IMG/VR virus record: IMGVR_UViG_3300027759_000043
DNA length: 64,000 nt
Strand: one strand, 5' to 3'
From: a virus
Taxonomy: Duplodnaviria; Caudoviricetes
A program made the translations under genes and the position numbers. Below the pieces are notes generated by a model. It was given only the letters and a program-made list of their open reading frames with translations. It made no database searches and was not told the DNA's origin. Below are positions 21,683 through 39,315 of this stretch, piece by piece (position 1 is the first letter of the stretch; each line of letters opens with the position of its first letter).

Positions 21683-22291
21683 ATGAAGACATTTCATCAA
21701 TATCTCGCAGAATCTGAGCGCACATACGACTACCGGATCAAAATCCTAGGTGACGTACCGCAGGAATTCATCAAAAATCTCGAAGAAAAAATGGCGCAGT
21801 TTGACATTGTCAAACTTAGTCGTCCTAAAACTACACCTGTGCAAAAGTTGCAAAAAGACTTTCCAGGCGCAGAAAATCAAAGCGTGACTTTTATGGACGT
21901 GAGTTTTAGATACCCTGCTATCGAACCACAGATCAAGCAGTTGGCACAGTTGTTGGGACTCAATCCCAACTTCATCACTTTGCAAACACAGTCGTATGAT
22001 GACAGCATTGCCAAAGAGATTGCTGACATCACAGCACAAAACACGGACCTGATTGCTGACACTGATTATCCCACACCTGATGCAGAACAGCGAGCATTGA
22101 GCCAAGACTACTCGGCCAATCCCTATCAACATGCAGTATTAAAGAACGAATATCGTTCAGACTTTACTGTGGCCGGCGGCAAGACACCTCCAGCAAAAAC
22201 CACAAATGATATTCCAACACAGGACAAGAGCCCGTTCAATAATATCAAGCGTCAACCCCGCCCAGCAACTGGTGCCAACCCAAGAGGATAA
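21683..22291 (+). CDS. Hypothetical protein with capsid-targeting-like N-terminus
   Basis: Starts MKTFHQYLAE, resembling the T4 internal-protein CTS MKTYQEFIAE. TAAATA at 21660, SD agga. Confidence 0.6.
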   Translation: MKTFHQYLAESERTYDYRIKILGDVPQEFIKNLEEKMAQFDIVKLSRPKTTPVQKLQKDFPGAENQSVTFMDVSFRYPAIEPQIKQLAQLLGLNPNFITLQTQSYDDSIAKEIADITAQNTDLIADTDYPTPDAEQRALSQDYSANPYQHAVLKNEYRSDFTVAGGKTPPAKTTNDIPTQDKSPFNNIKRQPRPATGANPRG

Positions 22292-22295
22292 TAAC

Positions 22296-24500
22296 ATGAC
22301 ATTTTTTTACGACTTAAACAAACGCATGGCTGAACTGAGCCAAAAACAAACTCTTGCAGAGCATGCAGTATCTGATCCTCAGCCTACTAAGAAGAGTCCA
22401 ATGACACAAGCACTCAATGAAAGCGCAGTTGCTGAAGCCAGTTATAGTGCCAAGGCTGCTCGTGCTGGTAAAGACATTGGTAAGCCAGGCAAGAACTTCA
22501 GTAAGATTGCTGCCGATGCAGGCAAGCGTTATGGTTCAAAAGCCGCAGGCGAGCGTGTGGCAGGTGCAGTATTAAACAAACTGCGTCATCCTAAAGAAGA
22601 TGTTGAAGAAAGTGCATTACAGGCTTACCTTGGCGACAAAAAGTACGGTAAAGAAGGCATGAAGGCATTGCAACAAGCAGGCCGTGAGCATGCTGGCAAA
22701 GAAAAAATGAACCAGATTCGTAATCGCTATGACAAGATGGACGAGGCCGACATGGAAGAAGGTGGCATTCCAATGACAGCCAAGCAAAAATCATTTGCTG
22801 CCTTGGCACCTCCCAAAGACAAGATTACATTTGCCGACAAGATTGCCGGCGCCAAACAAGAAGTTGAAGAAATGTTGGGTGACGTGGCAGCCGAAGCCAT
22901 CAAGAGCGCACTGAGTCCCAAGCAAAAGAAACTTGACCGTAACAACAACGGCAAATTAGATGCACAAGACTTTGAGATGCTACGTCGAGGTGCCAAACAA
23001 GAAACTGACGAAGGCTTTCCAACAGTAGCAGGTGCTCGTGCTGAATTGAACAAACGTAAAGTTGGCGATGTCACACATGGTGACAAGCATGACACACAAG
23101 AGATTCCAGGTGGCCGCAGAGTAACACGCCGTGTTGATCCCAACACAGGGTATTCAGTAGGTGCCGACAGTGACGCACCGGCCGGTGGTGAAAAGCGTGG
23201 ACGTGGCCGTCCCAAGTCCTCAGAAGGTCCACGTCAAGAACGTACCACAGCAAAATCACGCAAGACTGATCGTACTGCATACAGCAAAAAGAAAACCAAC
23301 GAAGATGATCTTGAGATCACTGATCGTGGCGAGTATGATCAAGAAGGCGAAATGGCCAAAGACAGCATCAAGACTGTGGTGCGTCATGCACAAGCCTTGG
23401 AAAAAATCCTGGGCGACAATGACAACTTGCCAGAATGGGTACAATCCAAGTTGGCCAAGATTGAAAGCATGATGACTGCTGTGGATGACTACATGCAGAA
23501 TCAAGAAGGCGACGATGAAATGGCCATGGACGAAGAAAAAACTTCTACTCGTGACAGTCGTGCTGAACGAGCCGGTCGCAAGGTAGCCAAAGACATCGAG
23601 TATGATGAAAAGAAGAAAGACGGTATCCATGGTAAAAAGCGTGGCTCTGAAGATGACCGGGCTGAACGAGCCGGCAAGAAAGTCACTAAAGACATCGAGT
23701 ATGATGAGAAAAAGAAAGAAAAGAAAGTAGATGAAACTACTACCAGTGGATCAGTTGCCACAGGTGGTGACGCTCCCAAGGCCAGCAAAGGTGGCATGCA
23801 AGTTGGCAAGGGCATTTACGACAGTTTAAATCGCCGAGTCGAAGGCATGATTGCGGAATCAATGAGTATCAACGTGAGCATGACCAAAGATGACAACGGT
23901 TCACACAAGAACATCACTGTCACAGCAGCCGATGAAGATGCAGAGGCTTTGGCACAAATGTTGCGCAGTGCTGGTCTAGGCGGTGATATGTCACACGGTC
24001 ATGAAGAGCCTTGCCCAGATTGCGGATCAACTGATTGTGGTTGCGATGAAGCAGTAGAAGAAGCCTATGGCGATACTAATGCTACACAAAATCAACCTGA
24101 TTGGCCTACTGACACTGAATACAGTGACGATGCCCTGCAATACTCAGGTGGCTTGAACAAGCCCAAGACTGACATTGCCGGTGACGGACAAACTACGATT
24201 CCTAATACTGCTGTTCACACTCAAAACGAAGATGAACTGCGCAGATTGCGTGAAATGGCTGGCATCAAGCAACAAGAACTCAAGCCATGGGAACGCACCA
24301 TGAAAGAAGCGGCAGTTGAAGAAGGTGTTGTAGACACAGTCAAAGACGTTGTGAAAAAAGGCATTGATGCGCTTAAAGGTCCTGACGATGACAAGTTGTT
24401 GTCAAAGTTAGAAAAAGAAACTGGTGGCAAGCGTCCTGAAAAGAAGGACGAGAAAATGCAAGAAAGCCTCATGCGAGAGTTTGCTAACTTCCGGATCTAA
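22296..24500 (+). CDS. Large charged protein, likely prohead core/internal head protein
   Basis: SD gagga, ATG 22296. K/E/D-rich, many hydrophobic-x-E sites, internal duplication, EF-hand-like loop and AT-hook-like motif. Confidence 0.6.
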   Translation: MTFFYDLNKRMAELSQKQTLAEHAVSDPQPTKKSPMTQALNESAVAEASYSAKAARAGKDIGKPGKNFSKIAADAGKRYGSKAAGERVAGAVLNKLRHPKEDVEESALQAYLGDKKYGKEGMKALQQAGREHAGKEKMNQIRNRYDKMDEADMEEGGIPMTAKQKSFAALAPPKDKITFADKIAGAKQEVEEMLGDVAAEAIKSALSPKQKKLDRNNNGKLDAQDFEMLRRGAKQETDEGFPTVAGARAELNKRKVGDVTHGDKHDTQEIPGGRRVTRRVDPNTGYSVGADSDAPAGGEKRGRGRPKSSEGPRQERTTAKSRKTDRTAYSKKKTNEDDLEITDRGEYDQEGEMAKDSIKTVVRHAQALEKILGDNDNLPEWVQSKLAKIESMMTAVDDYMQNQEGDDEMAMDEEKTSTRDSRAERAGRKVAKDIEYDEKKKDGIHGKKRGSEDDRAERAGKKVTKDIEYDEKKKEKKVDETTTSGSVATGGDAPKASKGGMQVGKGIYDSLNRRVEGMIAESMSINVSMTKDDNGSHKNITVTAADEDAEALAQMLRSAGLGGDMSHGHEEPCPDCGSTDCGCDEAVEEAYGDTNATQNQPDWPTDTEYSDDALQYSGGLNKPKTDIAGDGQTTIPNTAVHTQNEDELRRLREMAGIKQQELKPWERTMKEAAVEEGVVDTVKDVVKKGIDALKGPDDDKLLSKLEKETGGKRPEKKDEKMQESLMREFANFRI
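23562..23720 (+). repeat. Direct repeat pair with 99-nt period encoding RAERAG(R/K)KV(A/T)KDIEYDEKKK
   Basis: gctgaacgagccgg...aaagacatcgagtatgatga occurs at 23562 and 23661. Confidence 0.85.
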
Positions 24501-24501
24501 T

Positions 24502-24681
24502 ATGACACAACAGTATCAGACCTATGCAGAAACAATGTCCAGACTGGCGGAGAGACACCCGCCAGCACCAACACCTGCAGAGGTACGCAATCAACCTGCA
24601 ATGATACCCGGCGTGTTAAGTCAGACCACAAATCTGTTCCGCCCAGTGGCAGTGGCAGATCTCAATAAGGAATCGAAATAA
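24502..24681 (+). CDS. Small hypothetical protein (59 aa)
   Basis: ATG 1 nt after the upstream stop; its stop overlaps the next ATG. Confidence 0.5.
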   Translation: MTQQYQTYAETMSRLAERHPPAPTPAEVRNQPAMIPGVLSQTTNLFRPVAVADLNKESK

Positions 24682-25004
24682 TGGCTATTCAAGTTATCAA
24701 TGCAGTATCAAACGTGGCATGGACTACAGACAAGGTAGAAATTGCTACCACAACTGCCAACGTGACTTTTCAAGTTTCGGTTGTACAGTTGACCTATGTA
24801 CAAGCAAACGGTGTTCCGGCTAATGCCACAATGACCACACCCACCGGAAATCTATATGCCAACGTTATAGTGGTCCCTGGCAACACAGTGCAACAATACT
24901 ATGTTGGTGCAGGAAACTATTTGAACATAGTCACAGGCACTGGCTTCTCGGCCACAGCACTAGGCGCAGCCTCATCAGCCACGGCAGGTTCAAACGGCAT
25001 CTAA
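24681..25004 (+). CDS. Small beta-rich putative virion protein
   Basis: SD aagga; 107 aa, Thr/Val/Asn/Gly-rich. Confidence 0.65.
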   Translation: MAIQVINAVSNVAWTTDKVEIATTTANVTFQVSVVQLTYVQANGVPANATMTTPTGNLYANVIVVPGNTVQQYYVGAGNYLNIVTGTGFSATALGAASSATAGSNGI

Positions 25005-25005
25005 A

Positions 25006-25392
25006 ATGAGAGCCCGTGAGTTCATAACAGAAGGCGCTGGCAAGCGTGGCGGAACAAGAGCCGCTGCCGCGCATGAATTTGAAACTGCACATCCTGGCAT
25101 AGTAGGCCCTGGCGGCAAGGGAGACGTATACTGGGGCCGGTATTATGATCATTATCGTGTGGCAACATTGGCCGGCATGGACCTTGAACAATTGGAAAAC
25201 TCAGGCGATATAAATTTCTTTGGAAACTTGCCTATCTTTAGTGCCTACACTGAACACGATCGCAAGAAACTCACTGCAATTATGAAAAAACTGGGCATGA
25301 AGCCCCGAGATTCTATCAGCAATGGCAGTCATGAACCTGACTACGTAAATCACACAAGCCCAGTTACAGCATTTAAAGGTTATGCGAGATAG
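25006..25392 (+). CDS. MRAREF-family small protein, paralog 1
   Basis: MRAREFITE...YYDHYRVATLAG...TSPVTAFKGYAR. Confidence 0.8.
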   Translation: MRAREFITEGAGKRGGTRAAAAHEFETAHPGIVGPGGKGDVYWGRYYDHYRVATLAGMDLEQLENSGDINFFGNLPIFSAYTEHDRKKLTAIMKKLGMKPRDSISNGSHEPDYVNHTSPVTAFKGYAR

Positions 25393-25394
25393 CC

Positions 25395-26273
25395 ATGTGT
25401 GTAATACTTGCCAAGTACTTTGATGGTATTGGATGGGCCGGCGCTAAAAATCGCGATCGCAACTACACCCCTGTGCTAGACTTCATTGAAGACAACAGTC
25501 ACGACGTGCAACGTATGATGATGCATGACCAAGTCACAGGCTACAAAGAAGGCATCAATAATCATGGCATTAGCATACTAAACACCAGTTTGGATGTGTA
25601 TGATGATGAACGTGAAGTTGAAGCCGGCACAGCAGAAATCAGTCCTGACGGGCAAGTGATTGCCAAGGCCCTGTTACAACACACAGTACCCGATGCTGTT
25701 CAAGTGTTATTAGACGGAAAACTAGGCGGTTGTACCATTGTGTTTGACCGGGAACAACTGTATCTAATAGAAGCCAGCGACTGGGATAGCACACGTGAAT
25801 TCAAATCGATTGTGAAAAAGATCCCGAACACAGACACAGTGGCCAGAACCAATCATGGCATCTGGATGCAGGACACAGGATATCAACGCAGGCCCAACAA
25901 CCGGAGTGAAACACTCAGTAGAATTTCAAGTGAATCAAGACTTGCACTGGCCGAAGCAGTGGTGGCCACAGCCGAAGAACCTGAGGATTTGGTAGATGGC
26001 ATGTGTCAAGTGTACTTGAAGAATCCGCAACTAAATATAATGCGGACCAGCACAGAGCAAAAGAAAATGCGCACCACTAGTCAGCAGTTATGTGTTCCAG
26101 AAGAAAAGACACTGTATTGCCGTCCTGTTAGCAGTCATTTGCAATTTGATTTCTGGGGATTGAATCAACCCAACACTGATGTATGGGTAGAGATACTGAG
26201 CAACCGCGCACTGTGGCAGAATACACAAGGTGATCCTCCTTTTGGACACATGAAATTGAAAGACGTCAAATGA
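25395..26273 (+). CDS. Ntn-hydrolase-fold protein (NRDE/TANGO2- or peptidase C45-like)
   Basis: Met-Cys start, KNRDR, EGINNHGISILNT, ARTNHG. Confidence 0.6.
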   Translation: MCVILAKYFDGIGWAGAKNRDRNYTPVLDFIEDNSHDVQRMMMHDQVTGYKEGINNHGISILNTSLDVYDDEREVEAGTAEISPDGQVIAKALLQHTVPDAVQVLLDGKLGGCTIVFDREQLYLIEASDWDSTREFKSIVKKIPNTDTVARTNHGIWMQDTGYQRRPNNRSETLSRISSESRLALAEAVVATAEEPEDLVDGMCQVYLKNPQLNIMRTSTEQKKMRTTSQQLCVPEEKTLYCRPVSSHLQFDFWGLNQPNTDVWVEILSNRALWQNTQGDPPFGHMKLKDVK

Positions 26274-26668
26274 GAGCACGAGAGTTTGTAGCAGAAGCAA
26301 GATTTGGATCAGCCCAAGACGTTCCTGCTGACGCAAAGAAATTACCCAAAAGCCACGCTAGTGCCATCAAGGGTGCAGTCAGCATGCCTGATATATCAAT
26401 GACCAAACAAGGTGGTAGTCCCTACACACAATGGCGTTTTAGTCTGGCCATGGCAGGAGCACCAGATTTCCCCACACCAGCCGCTGGCGCATTTGCTGGC
26501 GACCCGCTGTTGGCAACTTACACAGACGTTGAAATGGACATCATTAATGCCGCTGCCAAGAGTGTTGGTGCCGGAAGAGTTAACAAACTAACTGACAATC
26601 GTAGTACAGAAGCAGACTATGTGCAAAAAACAAGTCCAGTAAAAGGATTCCGAGGATATCCCCGATGA
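26270..26668 (+). CDS. MRAREF-family small protein, paralog 2
   Basis: MRAREFVAE...PYTQWRFSLAMAG...TSPVKGFRGYPR; ATGA overlap with the upstream gene. Confidence 0.8.
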   Translation: MRAREFVAEARFGSAQDVPADAKKLPKSHASAIKGAVSMPDISMTKQGGSPYTQWRFSLAMAGAPDFPTPAAGAFAGDPLLATYTDVEMDIINAAAKSVGAGRVNKLTDNRSTEADYVQKTSPVKGFRGYPR

Positions 26669-27036
26669 GAGCCAGAGAATTTCTTAAAGAACACGATGGA
26701 ACCATCAGCGACAATTTCCGTTATGCCACAGTGGGACTGAACACCTTTGGTGATGGCGAGCACATCAGTGGGGATTATACATCATACAGGCTCATGATGG
26801 CCACTGCCATGGCTGACGGCACCAACAAGCCACTGGATCTTGATGCCAAGAGTTGGCACGGCAAAAGAAAAACAGCGCACCCTTACACTCAAGCGGAACA
26901 AAACATGTTGAAACAGGCCTACAAGGCAGTGGGCGCAGAGTGGCAAGATCTAAATCATGGCGACTTGGAGAGCCAAGAACCACCAGGCGGCAATGCCAAA
27001 AGCCCTATCGAACCATTTAAAGGGTATCCCAGATGA
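26665..27036 (+). CDS. MRAREF-family small protein, paralog 3
   Basis: MRAREFLKE...DYTSYRLMMATAMA...KSPIEPFKGYPR; ATGA overlap. Confidence 0.8.
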   Translation: MRAREFLKEHDGTISDNFRYATVGLNTFGDGEHISGDYTSYRLMMATAMADGTNKPLDLDAKSWHGKRKTAHPYTQAEQNMLKQAYKAVGAEWQDLNHGDLESQEPPGGNAKSPIEPFKGYPR

Positions 27037-27419
27037 GAGCACGAGAGTTTATTACAGAAGATCAAAATTTACCTCCTGAGCAAGCAGATCCCATGAGTCA
27101 TGTGTTTGTGTTGCCCGGAGTTAGATCTTCAGATCCTTACCAAATATACCGACTGGGTGTGGCCATGGCCCGAGCCCGTAGCGATGCTGGCACACAAGAT
27201 CCAATACCCTACATGCCTACCTGGAGTGCGCAAGCGGCATTTGGTGAAGAAGCAGTGATTGCTGGATTCAATGGTAATGTAGCGCCGGTGATTGATCAGG
27301 CATTGAAAATGGCTGGACTGCCAGGTGGCAAAGTACAAGTCAGTACACCAAACAGCATTGAGCCTGCCTCTGTAGACACACAAAGTCCTGTAAAAGGATT
27401 CAAAGGCTACCCAAGGTAA
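27033..27419 (+). CDS. MRAREF-family small protein, paralog 4
   Basis: MRAREFITE...PYQIYRLGVAMARA...QSPVKGFKGYPR; ATGA overlap. Confidence 0.8.
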   Translation: MRAREFITEDQNLPPEQADPMSHVFVLPGVRSSDPYQIYRLGVAMARARSDAGTQDPIPYMPTWSAQAAFGEEAVIAGFNGNVAPVIDQALKMAGLPGGKVQVSTPNSIEPASVDTQSPVKGFKGYPR

Positions 27420-27451
27420 CATAAATATTAGCCTATTTAAAAGGTATCTTT

Positions 27452-28267
27452 ATGAAACAACTCATTGCCTTGTTGGCATTGGCGGTATCCTTATCGGCTC
27501 ATGCCTGGGACCAACGAGCCCCTAATCCTGTACAAGCCTGTCAAGCGCACTCACCTTATGGATTTGCTACAGTCAAACGTGCTGTGCAACCCATCTGCCG
27601 TGAAGCATATCTAGTGGCATATGATGCTCCTGTAAAGATTCCTGCTTATGTGGCCTACACATTGCTACCGCAAAACGCATTGGGTTGCTTTCCCCGCACC
27701 AATGCTTTTGTTGCTGATCAAAGCGTCCAGGGCGGTGCTAGACCAGATGATTATGCTGGCACAGGCTATGACAAAGGACATGCCGCTCCTGATGGCGATT
27801 TATCTTGGTCAGCACAAGTGGAATACGAATCATTCCTTATGACCAATATGTATCCACAACACGGTAGTTTAAATCGTGGCATTTGGAAACTGTTGGAAAC
27901 AAGTGTGCGTGGTTGGGCAGTACAACTCAATCAACCCTACACAATTTATGTGGGTGCGTTCTACGGACCCGGTGATGAGTCAATTGGCAACGGCGTCGTT
28001 GTGCCACACGGCTTTTACAAAATTGTAATCAACAATCAAACCAAACAAATTGCTGGTTGGGCATTCCCACATACCAAACCCTATGTTAATTTAGGCAATG
28101 ACTTGACCAAGTTCCGACTGCCAGTCAGCCAAATTGAAATCACAGCAGGTGTTAAATTTGCTTACCCAGCAGGTGCTCGAGAACTACAGCCCGGACAAGA
28201 ATGGCCTGTGGACTACGGGTCTCTCACCAACGCTAAACGTGCTCGGTGTGGTCGGAATGCAGAATAA
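27452..28267 (+). CDS. DNA/RNA non-specific endonuclease (NucA/EndA-like) with signal peptide
   Basis: YDKGHAAP, MTNMYPQHGSLNRGIWKLLE, VPHGFYKIV. N-terminus MKQLIALLALAVSLSAHA. TAAATA at 27422. Confidence 0.9.
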   Translation: MKQLIALLALAVSLSAHAWDQRAPNPVQACQAHSPYGFATVKRAVQPICREAYLVAYDAPVKIPAYVAYTLLPQNALGCFPRTNAFVADQSVQGGARPDDYAGTGYDKGHAAPDGDLSWSAQVEYESFLMTNMYPQHGSLNRGIWKLLETSVRGWAVQLNQPYTIYVGAFYGPGDESIGNGVVVPHGFYKIVINNQTKQIAGWAFPHTKPYVNLGNDLTKFRLPVSQIEITAGVKFAYPAGARELQPGQEWPVDYGSLTNAKRARCGRNAE

Positions 28268-28334
28268 CCCATATCCTGTATACCCAGAGGACGATGGTCG
28301 CGATCGATTTCGTAACCCCTACAGTCCTGTATAA
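28257..28334 (+). CDS. Possible 25-aa microprotein MQNNPYPVYPEDDGRDRFRNPYSPV
   Basis: ATG overlaps the nuclease 3' end and the ORF fills the gap to the next gene. No clear SD. Confidence 0.3.
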   Translation: MQNNPYPVYPEDDGRDRFRNPYSPV

Positions 28335-29084: not shown

Positions 29085-30656
29085 ATGACCAAAACACTAG
29101 AAGGCGTACTGGTCAAAGCACCATACCGACGCCAAACGTTCTCTGATGATCAACTGCAGGAGTTTCTTGCCTGTGCCGATCCTCAAGACGGTCCTCACTA
29201 CTTTTTAGATCACTTCTTTTACATACAGCACCCCACACAGGGCAAGATGTTGTATCATCCGTTTTCTTATCAAAAGCGACTGATCGACACTTACCACAAC
29301 AACCGCTATAGCATAAGCATGATGCCGCGACAAACCGGCAAGTCCACATCAGCGGCTGGCTACATTCTCTGGTACGCCATGTTTGTGCCTGATTCCACTA
29401 TCCTTATTGCCGCACACAAGTACACAGGTGCCCAAGAGATCATGCAACGTATTCGCTTTGCTTATGAACTGTGCCCAGATCATATTCGAGCAGGTGTCAC
29501 CAGTTACAACAAAGGCTCCATAGACTTTGAAAACGGATCAAGAATTGTGTCAGCCACAACAACCGAAACAACTGGTCGTGGTATGAGTATTACTTTGCTG
29601 TACGCTGACGAGTTTGCGTTTGTGCGGCCCACTATTGCTACTGAGTTTTGGACCAGTATCTCCCCTACACTGGCCACAGGTGGTAAGGCCATTATCACAA
29701 GTACCCCCAACTCAGACGAAGATCAGTTTGCACTAATCTGGAAAGGTGCCAACAAGTGCATAGACGAGTTTGGCAACCCAACTGAACTGGGCATGAATGG
29801 ATTCCGAGCATTTAGAAGTTACTGGCAAGAGCACCCGGACCGTGACGAAGCCTGGGGTGAGAACATGCGGGCACAACTGGGTGATGATCGTTTCCGTCGA
29901 GAGATTGGTTGTGAGTTCATTATCAATGATGAAACACTTATTGCCCCGGCCAAGTTACTAGATTTAGAAAGTCGTGATCCTTGGAAACGTACAGGACATG
30001 TGCGTTGGTACGAAGCAATCAAACCCGACAGCATTTATGTTGTGGCACTAGACCCGTCATTAGGCACCGGAGGTGACCCTGCGGCCATACAGATATTTGA
30101 AGCCAACACCACACGTCAAGTGGGCGAGTGGACACACAACCGCACACCCATTCCAGAACAGATACGCATACTGTCGGACATCTGTAAGTACATCAACGAA
30201 ACTGTGCAAAACGACAAGAACATCTACTACAGCATCGAAAACAACACCATTGGCGAAGCAGGCTTGATCTCTATTGCAGAATTTGGTGAAGAAAACATAC
30301 AGGGTTACTTTTTGTCAGATCCACACATGAGCGGTAGTAACAGACGTATGCGCAAGGGCTTTAATACCACGCACAAAAGCAAACTGAGTGCCTGTGCCAA
30401 AGTTAAAAATCTAATAGAAACCAATAGAATGACTGTACACAGTGCGGCCTTGATAAGTGAACTCAAGACCTTTGTGGCTTCGGGCTTGAGTTTTGCCGCA
30501 AAAATAGGCGAAACAGATGACCTTGTGATGAGCATGCTATTAGCGGTGCGTATGATGCAGGTTTTACAGAGTTTTTATACAGAACTAGACAGTCAAATGA
30601 AGGATCACATGGACAACATAATTGAACCCATGCCTTTTATCTCTGTGATGCACTAA
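29085..30656 (+). CDS. gp17: Terminase large subunit (T4 gp17-like)
   Basis: MPRQTGKST Walker A, LYADEFAFV Walker B, ITSTPN, ALDPSLG, DDLVMS nuclease motifs. Confidence 0.95.
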   Translation: MTKTLEGVLVKAPYRRQTFSDDQLQEFLACADPQDGPHYFLDHFFYIQHPTQGKMLYHPFSYQKRLIDTYHNNRYSISMMPRQTGKSTSAAGYILWYAMFVPDSTILIAAHKYTGAQEIMQRIRFAYELCPDHIRAGVTSYNKGSIDFENGSRIVSATTTETTGRGMSITLLYADEFAFVRPTIATEFWTSISPTLATGGKAIITSTPNSDEDQFALIWKGANKCIDEFGNPTELGMNGFRAFRSYWQEHPDRDEAWGENMRAQLGDDRFRREIGCEFIINDETLIAPAKLLDLESRDPWKRTGHVRWYEAIKPDSIYVVALDPSLGTGGDPAAIQIFEANTTRQVGEWTHNRTPIPEQIRILSDICKYINETVQNDKNIYYSIENNTIGEAGLISIAEFGEENIQGYFLSDPHMSGSNRRMRKGFNTTHKSKLSACAKVKNLIETNRMTVHSAALISELKTFVASGLSFAAKIGETDDLVMSMLLAVRMMQVLQSFYTELDSQMKDHMDNIIEPMPFISVMH

Positions 30657-35167: not shown

Positions 35168-35709
35168 AAATAGCGATCACAGGCGGCACAGCCGGAATAG
35201 GACAAGCATTAGGCAATGAATACGAAAGTCGTGGACACGAGGTTTTAAGATTGAGTAGACGCACGGGGCACAATATACGCTCAATACCTAAAATTGCAGA
35301 TCAAATTGAATCTTGTGATATATTTGTCAACAATGCACAAGCAGGATTTACTCAGACTGAACTACTTTTTGAAATGGCTGGTCGTTGGGCTGATACCGGA
35401 AAGCGTATCATGGTAATCAGCACTATGATGACTCAATATCCGGTGAGTGTGTTGCCTGGATTAGACATGAATGCCTACAGAATTCAAAAGGTTGCTCTTG
35501 AAGAGGCAGTGAAACAAATACGCCATCAACAACTAGGAATCAAAATTACCATTGTGCGGCCAGGCAATATAGCCACCAGCAGTGATAAAACAGTTCCACC
35601 TGCGGCAGATGTAGATACTTGGGCCTCGGTATTAATAAAGACATTAGAAATGGCTCAAGCCAATAATTTAACTATTCCAGACATATCGTTGGGACCAGCG
35701 TTAAAATGA
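35164..35709 (+). CDS. Short-chain dehydrogenase/reductase (short, 181 aa)
   Basis: ITGGTAGIG, FVNNA, YRIQK (YxxxK), VRPG. Confidence 0.85.
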   Translation: MKIAITGGTAGIGQALGNEYESRGHEVLRLSRRTGHNIRSIPKIADQIESCDIFVNNAQAGFTQTELLFEMAGRWADTGKRIMVISTMMTQYPVSVLPGLDMNAYRIQKVALEEAVKQIRHQQLGIKITIVRPGNIATSSDKTVPPAADVDTWASVLIKTLEMAQANNLTIPDISLGPALK

Positions 35710-36857
35710 CACCCCGAGATATGTTGACCAATCCATACTTCTGTCCGATGCCTTGGACCGGACTAATGTATAACTTTGATGGCCAAGTTAAGAATTGTAT
35801 CCGTAGTGCTGGACCACTTGGTAATATCAAAGACCAACCCATTGAACAAATACTAGTTAATAACAATCAATTTAGGCAACAACAAATTGTTGATCAACAA
35901 CCTGTAGAAACTTGTCATACTTGTTACAAACTAGAACGTAGTAAAAAAGGATTTGATCATATTAGTGACCGTGTGTTTTACATACGAGAGTTAAAAAATG
36001 TACCAACGAATACATATCAAATCAATAACTTTGATTTACAAACAATTGATGTGCGTTGGTCCAATTTGTGTAATTTTGCTTGTGTATATTGCGGTCCTGA
36101 GTTTAGTAGTAAGTGGAGTGACGAATTAAAAATTCGTCACGCGGTGCCTTCGTATCAGCAGTTGACTGATTTTAAAAATTACATATATGATCACGCCGAC
36201 CAACTCAAACATGTGTATCTAGCAGGTGGCGAGCCTTTATTGATGAAAGAAAATTTAGCCTTATTGGAAAAACTAGATACCAATACAAATATCAGGATAA
36301 ACACTAATCTAAGCAAAGTTGACACTCAAGTATTTGATGCTGTTTGCAGATTTCAAAATGTACATTGGACTGTGAGTGTAGAAACTCTGGCAGAAGAATT
36401 TGAATACATACGCTATGGTGGATCTTGGATAGATTTTTTGGATAACCTAGCAATAATCAAGCAATTAAATCACAAGATATCATTTAACATGTTGCATTTC
36501 TTGTTGAACTACAACTCCATATTTGACTGTGTGGACTTTTTGAAGCAATTGGGATTTCACAACAACAGTTTTATAATTGGTGCCTTGCTATCACCTGAAT
36601 ACCTAAATATTAGACATTTGCCTGAAAATGTGTTAAACTCTGTAAAGAGTAAATTGCAGGATAGAATCAACCAAAAACCTGGTTATCTACTTGAAGACAG
36701 TTATAGAAATATGCTACACTACCTTGATATTCCGTTTGAGAAAAATATCATGCAATCAATTGATAAAATATCAGAATTGGATCGGCGTAGAGGCATAGAC
36801 AGCCGGACAATTTTTAAAGATTTATATAAGGACATAGACCATGGGAAAACCATTTGA
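35706..36857 (+). CDS. Radical SAM protein with N-terminal twitch/SPASM-like domain
   Basis: CPMPW...CIR...CHTC; CNFACVYC; LAGGEPLL; INTN. Confidence 0.9.
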   Translation: MTPRDMLTNPYFCPMPWTGLMYNFDGQVKNCIRSAGPLGNIKDQPIEQILVNNNQFRQQQIVDQQPVETCHTCYKLERSKKGFDHISDRVFYIRELKNVPTNTYQINNFDLQTIDVRWSNLCNFACVYCGPEFSSKWSDELKIRHAVPSYQQLTDFKNYIYDHADQLKHVYLAGGEPLLMKENLALLEKLDTNTNIRINTNLSKVDTQVFDAVCRFQNVHWTVSVETLAEEFEYIRYGGSWIDFLDNLAIIKQLNHKISFNMLHFLLNYNSIFDCVDFLKQLGFHNNSFIIGALLSPEYLNIRHLPENVLNSVKSKLQDRINQKPGYLLEDSYRNMLHYLDIPFEKNIMQSIDKISELDRRRGIDSRTIFKDLYKDIDHGKTI

Positions 36858-37899: not shown

Positions 37900-38155
37900 A
37901 GCAATAGCCAGTGAAATTTGGGGAGAACTCAAGCGTTTTGTAAACACGGTGGATCGTGCCGAAGCCGCAGAAACTGTGATACAAATCTTGATGGACAATG
38001 ATTCAGACGTGGAAGACATTCGCACGGCATTCAAAGGAGATACAGACATCAAACGTGCGTTGACTGCATACCTTGACAACGACAAGGACTATGTGGAAGA
38101 CGAAGAGGAAGAGTTTGACGAAGAGGAAGACGAAGACGAGGACTGGGAAAACTAA
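37892..38155 (+). CDS. Small acidic hypothetical protein
   Basis: 87 aa ending DYVEDEEEEFDEEEDEDEDWEN. Confidence 0.75.
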   Translation: MSEAIASEIWGELKRFVNTVDRAEAAETVIQILMDNDSDVEDIRTAFKGDTDIKRALTAYLDNDKDYVEDEEEEFDEEEDEDEDWEN

Positions 38156-39315
38156 TGACTGGCAAATCGACTGATTTTTATTGCAGTCAGAAGTTTACCT
38201 GGCTATCCGTAGATCTAGAAAAAAGACTAACGTATTCGTGCTGTAAAGCATACCCAGAAAAAATCAATTTATCTTGGCTTAAAAATAATCCTGGACAAAT
38301 ATTCAATACCGAATTGCTAAAGGCCGAAAGACAAAGTATGCTGGACAACATTCCAGTTGAAAGTTGTCGCACTGCATGTTGGATTCCAGAGAGCCAAGGG
38401 TTCACAAGTCGCAGACTGCAACTTGGCCAAGAAAAAACTCACAGCGGCATTGACGCTCAACCCGAAACTTTGAATATTATACTAGGATCCAGTTGTAATC
38501 TGACTTGTTCTTATTGTTGTAAACAATATAGCACTTCGTGGCTGCAAGATATAAAAAACAATGGCGCATATCTTGACTCTAATAGATTTAAACTGCTACC
38601 AATTGACCATGTATTGTTAAAAGTCAGTCAACAAGAACACGAAAATACTGATGCGTTTTTGATGCTACTGGACGAAATAAAACAATTTAACAATCTCAAA
38701 AGAGTTATTATAACCGGCGGCGAACCTTTTTTATACAATAACTTGTTTACGCTTTTGGAAAAAACACCGCCTTCGGTAGAAATTGTGTTGTACACTGGCC
38801 TAGGTGTTAATCACTCTCGATTAATCAAGCAAATCAACAAAATCAAACACATACCCAATTTAAAAATTATTGTCAGTGCAGAGAATGTTGATAATTTCTA
38901 CGAGTTCAATCGACACGGCAACACTTACCAAAATTTTGAAAGTAACTTGCAATTGCTGATTGATTCTGGGTTTATAATAACTTTTTTGTCTATAATTAGC
39001 AATCTCACTGTCTTTGGATTGACGGAATTTGCCAACAAATATGAACATTTTAATATAGATTATGATTATTGTCATGATCCAGATTATCTAGGCGTTCATG
39101 TGTTGGATGATATTAGCAAAGAAAAATTAATACAATCACTCCAGTCCAGCAACATTGCAGTCAAAAATGAAATTATTCAATCTTTGTCAATTGATTGTAC
39201 ACAAGAACAACAAAAAAATTGTTCTATATTTGTTAAAGAATTTGCTAGTCGTAGAAATTTAGATCTTAAAATTTTTCCCAACAGTATGTTACAATGGTTA
39301 GAACATGTGGTATAG
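38155..39315 (+). CDS. Radical SAM protein with N-terminal twitch/SPASM-like domain
   Basis: CSQKF...SCC...CRTAC; CNLTCSYC; ITGGEPFL. Confidence 0.9.
   Translation: MTGKSTDFYCSQKFTWLSVDLEKRLTYSCCKAYPEKINLSWLKNNPGQIFNTELLKAERQSMLDNIPVESCRTACWIPESQGFTSRRLQLGQEKTHSGIDAQPETLNIILGSSCNLTCSYCCKQYSTSWLQDIKNNGAYLDSNRFKLLPIDHVLLKVSQQEHENTDAFLMLLDEIKQFNNLKRVIITGGEPFLYNNLFTLLEKTPPSVEIVLYTGLGVNHSRLIKQINKIKHIPNLKIIVSAENVDNFYEFNRHGNTYQNFESNLQLLIDSGFIITFLSIISNLTVFGLTEFANKYEHFNIDYDYCHDPDYLGVHVLDDISKEKLIQSLQSSNIAVKNEIIQSLSIDCTQEQQKNCSIFVKEFASRRNLDLKIFPNSMLQWLEHVV

Follow-up and report, generated by a model that had tools for sequence, protein, structure and literature searches.

A short N-terminal leader common to the MRAREF family and to unrelated proteins of an uncultured jumbo phage clade: a candidate T4-type capsid-targeting propeptide

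We analysed a 64,000-nucleotide (nt) stretch of DNA from a tailed phage (Caudoviricetes; IMG/VR record IMGVR_UViG_3300027759_000043), below referred to as the window. Four paralogous genes in it, F1 to F4, encode proteins that all begin with a nine-residue leader, MRAREF[I/V/L]xE, and form a family named here MRAREF. By analogy with phage T4, the leader is on balance probably a capsid-targeting propeptide, and the family probably consists of internal head proteins. If this reading holds, these would most likely be the main internal head proteins of the phage clade to which the window belongs. T4 already provides an example of such a system; new here are the protein family, the clade and a hydrolase gene cassette embedded in the array.

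All four genes lie on the plus strand: F1 at 25006..25392 (128 amino acids, aa), F2 at 26270..26668 (132 aa), F3 at 26665..27036 (123 aa) and F4 at 27033..27419 (128 aa). As stated in a preliminary description of the window made from the sequence alone, the open reading frames (ORFs) have fixed ends, the second being SP[V/I]xxF[K/R]GY[A/P]R. They also have the internal motif Y-x-x-[Y/W]-R, followed by a hydrophobic/Ala stretch, and F2/F3 and F3/F4 are chained by ATGA overlaps. However, the array of four is not uninterrupted. Between copies 1 and 2 there is a gene, missed in that description, for a 292-aa cysteine N-terminal nucleophile (Cys-Ntn) hydrolase (25395..26273, plus strand; below, the Ntn gene), and its stop codon overlaps the start of F2 in an ATGA as well. 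Gaps of 1-2 nt separate the small protein gene g107 (24681..25004, plus strand), the first of the block, from F1, and F1 from the Ntn gene. Given these overlaps and gaps, g107-F1-Ntn-F2-F3-F4 is one tightly coupled unit. The pairwise identity among F1-F4 is 32-34% overall and about 30% between the conserved ends. In a six-frame motif scan of the 64 kb, the leader and tail motifs were confined to these four genes.

The leader is conserved as a peptide. Its consensus is M-R-A-x-E-F-[I/V/L]-x-E, and M1, R2, E5, F6 and E9 are invariant in 119 non-redundant members, whose identity elsewhere is about 32%. The other invariant positions of this set are E110 and S118, and A3, Y36, R40, S108, P119, F123, G125 and Y126 are near-invariant. 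Codons were counted in 162 distinct family members. Ala3 is encoded by GCA (73), GCC (45) and GCT (37), Glu5 by GAA (101) and GAG (60), Phe6 by TTT (121) and TTC (41), and Glu9 by GAA (130) and GAG (32), with ATA, ATC and ATT about equally frequent at Ile7. The leaders in the window, all on the plus strand, are MRAREFITE in F1 (25006..25032, predicted cut after Glu9), MRAREFVAE in F2 (26270-26296), MRAREFLKE in F3 (26665-26691) and MRAREFITE in F4 (27033-27059); these four candidate propeptides have only 20-24 of 27 nt in common. Since synonymous codons vary freely at the invariant leader positions, selection acts on the peptide and not on DNA or RNA. The same variation rules out DNA-level conservation as the cause of the fixed ends.

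Residue counts come from 260 database proteins that bear the leader, collected in two family searches. At position 9 there are 248 Glu and a single Asp, while Asp is accepted 11 times at position 5; Phe occupies position 6, and Ile, Val or Leu position 7. The end of the leader therefore matches the prohead-protease motif of T4-type head cargo, in which Glu is required, and the strict Glu9 fits a glutamyl-specific protease. In the AlphaFold2 model of F4, built from a 119-row alignment, the first 10 residues have the lowest confidence (predicted local distance difference test, pLDDT, of 65 versus 84.6 overall), and so the leader does not appear to be part of the fold. One member has the variant leader MKINEI; its IMG/VR relatives all carry MRAxEF.

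The same leader was found on proteins unrelated to the family. In three near-complete related phage genomes of about 320-344 kb (G001-G003), the back-translated leader pattern matched 10 gene starts, versus none for a reversed control. Four of the 10 are non-family genes, which encode a 663-aa double GNAT acetyltransferase and proteins of 60, 105 and 176 aa. An Asp5 variant of the leader was observed in relatives on a 183-aa DUF6321 protein. A leader scan of IMG/VR yielded counts from at least 120 loci; among the 120 loci listed there are 158 leader ORFs, 98 of them from the family and 60 others. After removal of the leader, 59 non-family proteins of at least 50 aa fell into at least 24 sequence clusters. 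Their domains include Phage_lysozyme2 with LysM, GH19 with or without LysM, GNAT, ParB_N with DUF6886, DUF6267 and DUF6934, as well as a weak match to Kinase-PolyVal. In the non-family leader ORFs, the nearest in-frame stop lies a median of 5 codons upstream, and 50 of the 60 contain no upstream start codon, which places the leader at true N-termini. A short N-terminal segment common to otherwise unrelated proteins of one lineage is also what is seen in T4-type head cargo.

The C-terminal motif is not portable. None of the 58 complete non-family proteins with the leader carries it, and in the same sample of leader ORFs just 40 of the 91 family members do; in the wider family the tail after SPV varies, although it mostly stays basic. 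The motif is therefore a feature of the family domain and not the second docking tag that had been proposed. In F4 (SPVKGFKGYPR, 27384..27416, plus strand) the model places it within the fold at fair confidence (pLDDT 77-88); the counterparts of this motif on the same strand are at 25357-25389 in F1, 26633-26665 in F2 and 27001-27033 in F3. Possibly, SPVxxFKGYPR contacts DNA or a conserved phage partner.

A family-specific motif modelled within the fold, and orthologs that evolve as slowly as housekeeping phage genes (see below), would also suit late non-virion proteins, such as assembly chaperones, regulators or DNA-handling factors. The conserved ends would then be ordinary domain parts, and the likeness to T4 convergent or coincidental. 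We consider this improbable, as it leaves unexplained that the same nine residues occur at the exact N-termini of at least 24 unrelated clusters, that model confidence is lowest in the leader, and that Glu at position 9 is strict.

Among IPI, IPII and IPIII of T4, only IPII and IPIII begin with MKTYQEFIAE. The preliminary description ascribed this leader to IPI as well; IPI, however, begins with MKTFKEF and has a longer N-terminus in which the first Ile-x-Glu is ITE19. In the alignment, F6, I7 and E9 correspond to F7, I8 and E10 of the T4 leader. Both MRAREFITE and MKTYQEFIAE have a basic residue at position 2, an E-F-I-x-E end and Glu before the cut, which is a predicted one here; the leader here is one residue shorter. 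In T4, residues 4 and 7 of the leader are involved in targeting and residues 8 and 10 in processing, Asp at position 10 blocks processing, and gp21 cuts after L/I-X-E (PMC9026906). The T4 leader is sufficient to load foreign proteins into heads (PMC9026906; PMC5694885; PMC3012670).

The analogy extends to the proteins themselves. In T4, as here, a short N-terminal leader occurs on otherwise unrelated proteins (IPII and IPIII, also IPI and Alt), where it is cut by the gp21 prohead protease, and the T4 internal proteins are likewise small, basic or acidic, and variable in copy number. Unlike in T4, the leader set here is dominated by one large conserved family of old, slowly evolving paralogs with its own conserved C-terminal motif, whereas little conservation has been described for the ip loci of T4 (PMC9026906). 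Moreover, packaging, cleavage and injection are established for T4 and predicted here. When the family profile was compared with the T4 internal proteins by hhalign, the probabilities were 0.9% for IPIII, 15% for IPII and 0.2% for IPI, and either the leader segment or nothing was aligned: with IPII and IPIII, just REFItE was matched to QEFIAE. As the alignment covers the leader segment at most, the mature proteins do not appear to be homologs of IPI, IPII or IPIII.

The machinery required for T4-type head maturation was found in relatives. Genomes G001-G003 encode a Peptidase_S77 protein of the T4 gp21 family (E-values 1e-24 to 1e-27), the related locus L103 has a 216-aa gene for a protease of this type, and the T4-like head module of the relatives comprises a portal, small acidic proteins, the protease, a scaffold-like protein and a capsid protein. 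The latter is a gp23 homolog (E 1e-35) with a conserved N-terminal YL[K/R]E-N that aligns with T4 FLTE-A. In the T4 sequence, the Glu of FLTE is residue Glu65 of gp23, after which gp23 is cut (FLTE-A). T4 and the relatives thus have in common a protease of the gp21 family, a scaffold and a capsid protein of the gp23 family in which aromatic-Leu-x-Glu stands at the T4 cleavage position; the leader, too, matches this predicted cleavage site of the capsid protein. The earlier suggestion that the leader is of a capsid-targeting type is supported indirectly by its conservation at the protein level, its aliphatic-x-Glu end, its presence in at least 24 unrelated clusters and the gp21-, gp22- and gp23-type genes of the relatives.

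The array is located within a structural block, in the order sheath, tube, head-closure, array, terminase. The proteins would be made from this late structural operon, between the tail/neck genes and the terminase. By analogy with T4, the leader would attach them to the scaffolding core while the prohead assembles, and a gp21-type prohead protease would cut after Glu9. The mature proteins of about 114-123 aa would stay in the head with the DNA, and would probably leave with it at infection.

The giant phages phiKZ, 201phi2-1 and SPN3US offer a second parallel, as they have families of diverged, protease-processed paralogs in the head, with cleavage after Glu (predicted in our case). The SPN3US paralogs gp53 and gp54 are 34% identical overall but have the same N-terminal sequence, which has been read as a targeting propeptide (PMC5694885). 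However, these phages belong to another lineage, their propeptides are 80-130 residues long with the cleavage motif S/A-X-E, and no sequence or fold similarity was found between the MRAREF family and their inner-head proteins. All MRAREF members have a conserved Ser-x-Glu about 18 residues before the C-terminus (residues 108-110 in F1), just before the SPV motif, which resembles S/A-X-E of the phiKZ-type phages rather than the T4 motif. That it might be a second protease site is speculation, and its P3 residue is Ser, not an aliphatic one.

Several observations weigh against a T4-type packaging signal. The resemblance to the T4 leader extends over only about six residues. The head module was located in the three near-complete relatives only, outside the window. 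The leader pattern has no matches in Pseudomonas phage PA5oct and is absent from the cultured phages searched. The family is absent from them too, as neither a megablast search with the region nor tblastn searches with F4 and a tandem member gave a match among 50,697 cultured phage records; a fusion with a cytidylyltransferase-family domain matched such records through the enzyme domain only. The T4 late-promoter motif TATAAATA occurs four times in the window versus 2.2 expected, that is, without enrichment. Finally, some leader-bearing proteins are not obvious head cargo. Those with DUF6267 contain a KxDG-like motif and are possibly ligase-like enzymes. In two small endolysin-like GH19 proteins, the MRAxEFxxE leader is immediately followed by a hydrophobic signal RRGFL, similar to those of the twin-arginine translocation (Tat) pathway; these proteins are encoded at L176:3861-4493 (minus strand) and in L128 (plus strand, ORF starting at 2992). 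A Tat-like signal right behind the leader does not agree easily with simple head packaging, unless export follows delivery.

The preliminary description went further than packaging and considered the paralogs to be injected anti-defence effectors diversified against different host targets, a function that would be added onto the packaging model. There is a precedent in the T4 internal proteins, which include injected anti-restriction proteins; IPI blocks GmrSD (PMC3012670). In agreement with this description, the family is not single-copy and invariant in relatives: they carry between 1 and 4 copies, the additional ones (F3, F4 and other types) being present in some and missing in others. Another point in its favour is that the family domain is sometimes fused to cytidylyltransferase-like and HExxH zincin-like domains. 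On the other hand, the tree consists of deep, persistent subfamilies, each with orthologs in many phages. The orthologs of F1, F2 and F4 are approximately as conserved as the terminase, with 72% mean column identity in the F1 subfamily. In pairwise comparisons with four relatives, the ratio of nonsynonymous to synonymous substitution rates (dN/dS) is 0.065-0.14 for F1-F4, like or below that of the neighbouring structural genes (0.06-0.20). These low ratios reflect strong purifying selection and not a fast diversification of orthologs, so that the claimed diversification against host targets is not supported. Structure and profile searches detected no similarity to a known anti-defence protein or fold. 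An anti-defence role is therefore rather unlikely. The isoelectric points (pI) of the mature proteins are bimodal, and in the window equal 8.9 for F1, 9.5 for F2, 5.9 for F3 and 5.2 for F4. As these paralogs are old and conserved, two of them being basic and two acidic, a role in the head or in early infection that is itself conserved fits better than a fast arms race.

The sequences indicate that turnover in the family proceeds via gain and loss of whole genes. F3 is precisely missing between F2 and F4 in the related loci L002 and L072. Nucleotide identity between positions 24600-28300 and the loci L002, L003 and L072 is stepwise; with L002 it is 80-92% in F1 and the Ntn gene, 67-80% in F2 and F4, and 87-96% in the nuclease gene that follows the array. 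The synonymous rate, dS, ranges from 0.4 to more than 1.4 between adjacent genes within one genome pair. These changes in identity and dS from gene to gene indicate recombination within the block. The earlier idea of cassette exchange by recombination thus has some support from the mosaic identity and the precise absence of F3; the leaders share only the 20-24 nt given above.

The Ntn gene is coupled to two of the paralogs. Its product starts with Met-Cys, and Cys2 is invariant in 32 homologs. It matches NCBIfam C45_proenzyme with E 8e-8 and 32.1 bits (cut-off 85), and Pfam AAT with 16.2 bits (cut-off 23.2), in both cases below the curated threshold. The AlphaFold2 model (pLDDT 80.5, predicted template modelling score, pTM, 0.85) has Foldseek matches with E 1e-5 to 1e-6 to 3hbc, 2x1e, 6ufy and 5j9r, among them choloylglycine hydrolase, isopenicillin-N acyltransferase, penicillin V acylase (PVA) and N-acylethanolamine acid amidase (NAAA). 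Based on the invariant Cys2, the weak family matches and the fold match of the model, the 292-aa protein is identified as a Cys-Ntn amidohydrolase. It combines a candidate N-terminal nucleophile Cys with the alpha-beta-beta-alpha Ntn fold of the group formed by C45, PVA and bile-salt hydrolase (BSH). As in the known Cys-Ntn hydrolases (C45 acyl-CoA:6-aminopenicillanic acid acyltransferase, PVA, BSH, NAAA), the Cys directly follows the start Met and the predicted fold is the same. Unlike in these enzymes, there is no pro-segment, and the nucleophile would be exposed by Met removal alone; moreover, this enzyme is encoded by a phage, is coupled to two MRAREF-family genes, and scores below the curated cut-offs.

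The F1 subfamily was found solely in loci with the Ntn gene, and F2 nearly so, whereas F1-Ntn-F2 is absent from otherwise close relatives that retain F3/F4-type copies. Because of this co-occurrence, F1-Ntn-F2 behaves as a cassette whose parts are present together or missing together, although the co-occurrence of F1 with the Ntn gene may partly result from shared descent. The Ntn product itself lacks the leader.

The strict coupling of F1 to a hydrolase gene would be expected if the leader were a handle for a process unrelated to the capsid, with a modifying radical S-adenosylmethionine (radical-SAM) enzyme, the adjacent Ntn hydrolase or some other sorting route acting on it and the MRAREF proteins being the substrates or partners. 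Radical-SAM genes are indeed abundant in the window and in relatives, and some leader-bearing proteins look cytoplasmic or exported. However, many phages have the leader and the family without the Ntn gene, so that the idea of an Ntn partner or substrate cannot explain the leader. The radical-SAM gene nearest to the array is 3.5-14 kb away and in a different place in each of G001-G003, and given 12-17 such genes per genome, this proximity means little, as it is expected by chance. Nor does any such enzyme model predict a short, charged leader with a gp21-motif end and a strict Glu. A handle of this kind is thus quite improbable, and a linkage of the leader to radical-SAM enzymes is rejected, as there is no fixed adjacency in the three genomes. 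The radical-SAM matches in G001-G003 are scattered, and their number seems unusually high for a phage. The window contains at least two radical-SAM genes identified by Pfam, at 35706-36857 and 38155-39315, near uvsX.

The MRAREF family appears to be an undescribed, phage-only family. No family model from Pfam, PHROGs or NCBIfam matched F1-F4. At least 187 relatives were confirmed in IMG/VR, and 79 loci were examined. A profile of the four paralogs detected 1-4 copies in each of the 79 loci with E-values of 1e-13 to 1e-48, and by these sequence comparisons the likeness among F1-F4 is far beyond chance. In the related loci, all copies lie on one strand, are usually chained, and are placed between g107 and the terminase wherever the flanks were captured. 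A profile of the 119 non-redundant members found 689 clusters at the 50% identity level (E up to 1e-3) among 1.84 billion representatives, and 2,990 clusters at the 90% identity level, all of them metagenomic and unnamed. The wider family also contains tandem doubles and proteins in which the family domain is a C-terminal module behind cytidylyltransferase-like or HExxH zincin-like domains (P0012, P0138, P0146, P0075, P0131). Several long fusion or tandem members begin with the leader-like MRLxDL or MKLREF.

The F4 model (pTM 0.54) consists of two real helices and long extended segments. No convincing fold match to it was found in PDB and BFVD by Foldseek, in AFDB clusters, by a wide VIA-align search (best Z 2.6) or in the ESM Atlas by shape; the sole near match was one uncultured-phage protein in BFVD. 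A PDB profile search with the family produced nothing meaningful, and a search of the ESM Atlas by features gave no usable match.

The terminase of the window is at most 52% identical to that of any of the 50,697 cultured phage records, the top match being PA5oct. On this sequence comparison, the window is assigned to an uncultured jumbo phage whose closest cultured relative is PA5oct. The latter has the same backbone around the terminase, but neither g107 nor the array.

If the leader is a capsid-targeting signal, the proteins delivered with the DNA could be listed from genome sequence, a task for which a cultured host is otherwise indispensable. The address label known from T4 packaging would then extend to a distant jumbo-phage clade whose nearest cultured relative lacks the leader, and an unannotated family of about 3,000 database clusters would receive its first role. 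If this reading is wrong, a nine-residue N-terminal tag on at least 25 unrelated clusters, counting the MRAREF family, is still to be explained.

A wider generalization is possible, and we offer it as a tentative one. The leader might be a lineage-wide label of an "injected proteome" in an abundant uncultured jumbo-phage clade, predictable from sequence. The cargo would include cell-wall hydrolases, acetyltransferases, kinase- and ParB-like proteins, with the MRAREF family as the bulk internal head protein; F1-Ntn-F2 would be a separate functional unit built on two such proteins, and the T4 signal an ancient address label used across distant phages of the T4 superfamily.

The hosts of this clade may be Saprospiraceae (Bacteroidota). 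The block g764-g107-F3-F4-...-terminase is present in two contigs of a Haliscomenobacter sp. metagenome-assembled genome (MAG), NZ_JBBAKG010000001.1 (L238, 183 kb) and NZ_JBBAKG010000003.1 (L239, 148 kb), with an F4 copy very similar to that of the window. A third match is a 3-kb contig from an uncultured Saprospiraceae MAG. The two larger contigs look like jumbo-phage contigs inside bacterial bins. As the lead stems from a phage-like block in contigs of Haliscomenobacter and Saprospiraceae MAGs, it is rather weak.

The array is preceded by genes for a tail sheath, two tube proteins, a gp4-like head-closure protein, two small proteins, a 764-aa protein and g107. The 764-aa protein (22206-24500) is highly charged and of low complexity, and precedes g107 in all relatives; its positional counterpart in PA5oct is gp281, identified as a virion protein through mass spectrometry, and no similarity between the two was detected. 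The gene g107 lies upstream of the array in most of the related loci that are long enough to include this region. A scan of 21-30 kb for sigma-70 promoters and terminators gave results at or below shuffle level.

Downstream of the array are genes for a secreted-type nuclease, the large terminase (29085..30656, plus strand), a virion structural protein and a gp32-like single-stranded DNA-binding protein. With the terminase, the variable block containing the array has a conserved limit on its downstream side. The nuclease, directly after the array (27452-28267), has 271 aa and belongs to the DNA/RNA non-specific endonucleases (Pfam Endonuclease_NS, E 2e-37); a hydrophobic, signal-like segment is located at its N-terminus. 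It was found in many, not all, relatives, with variable identity.

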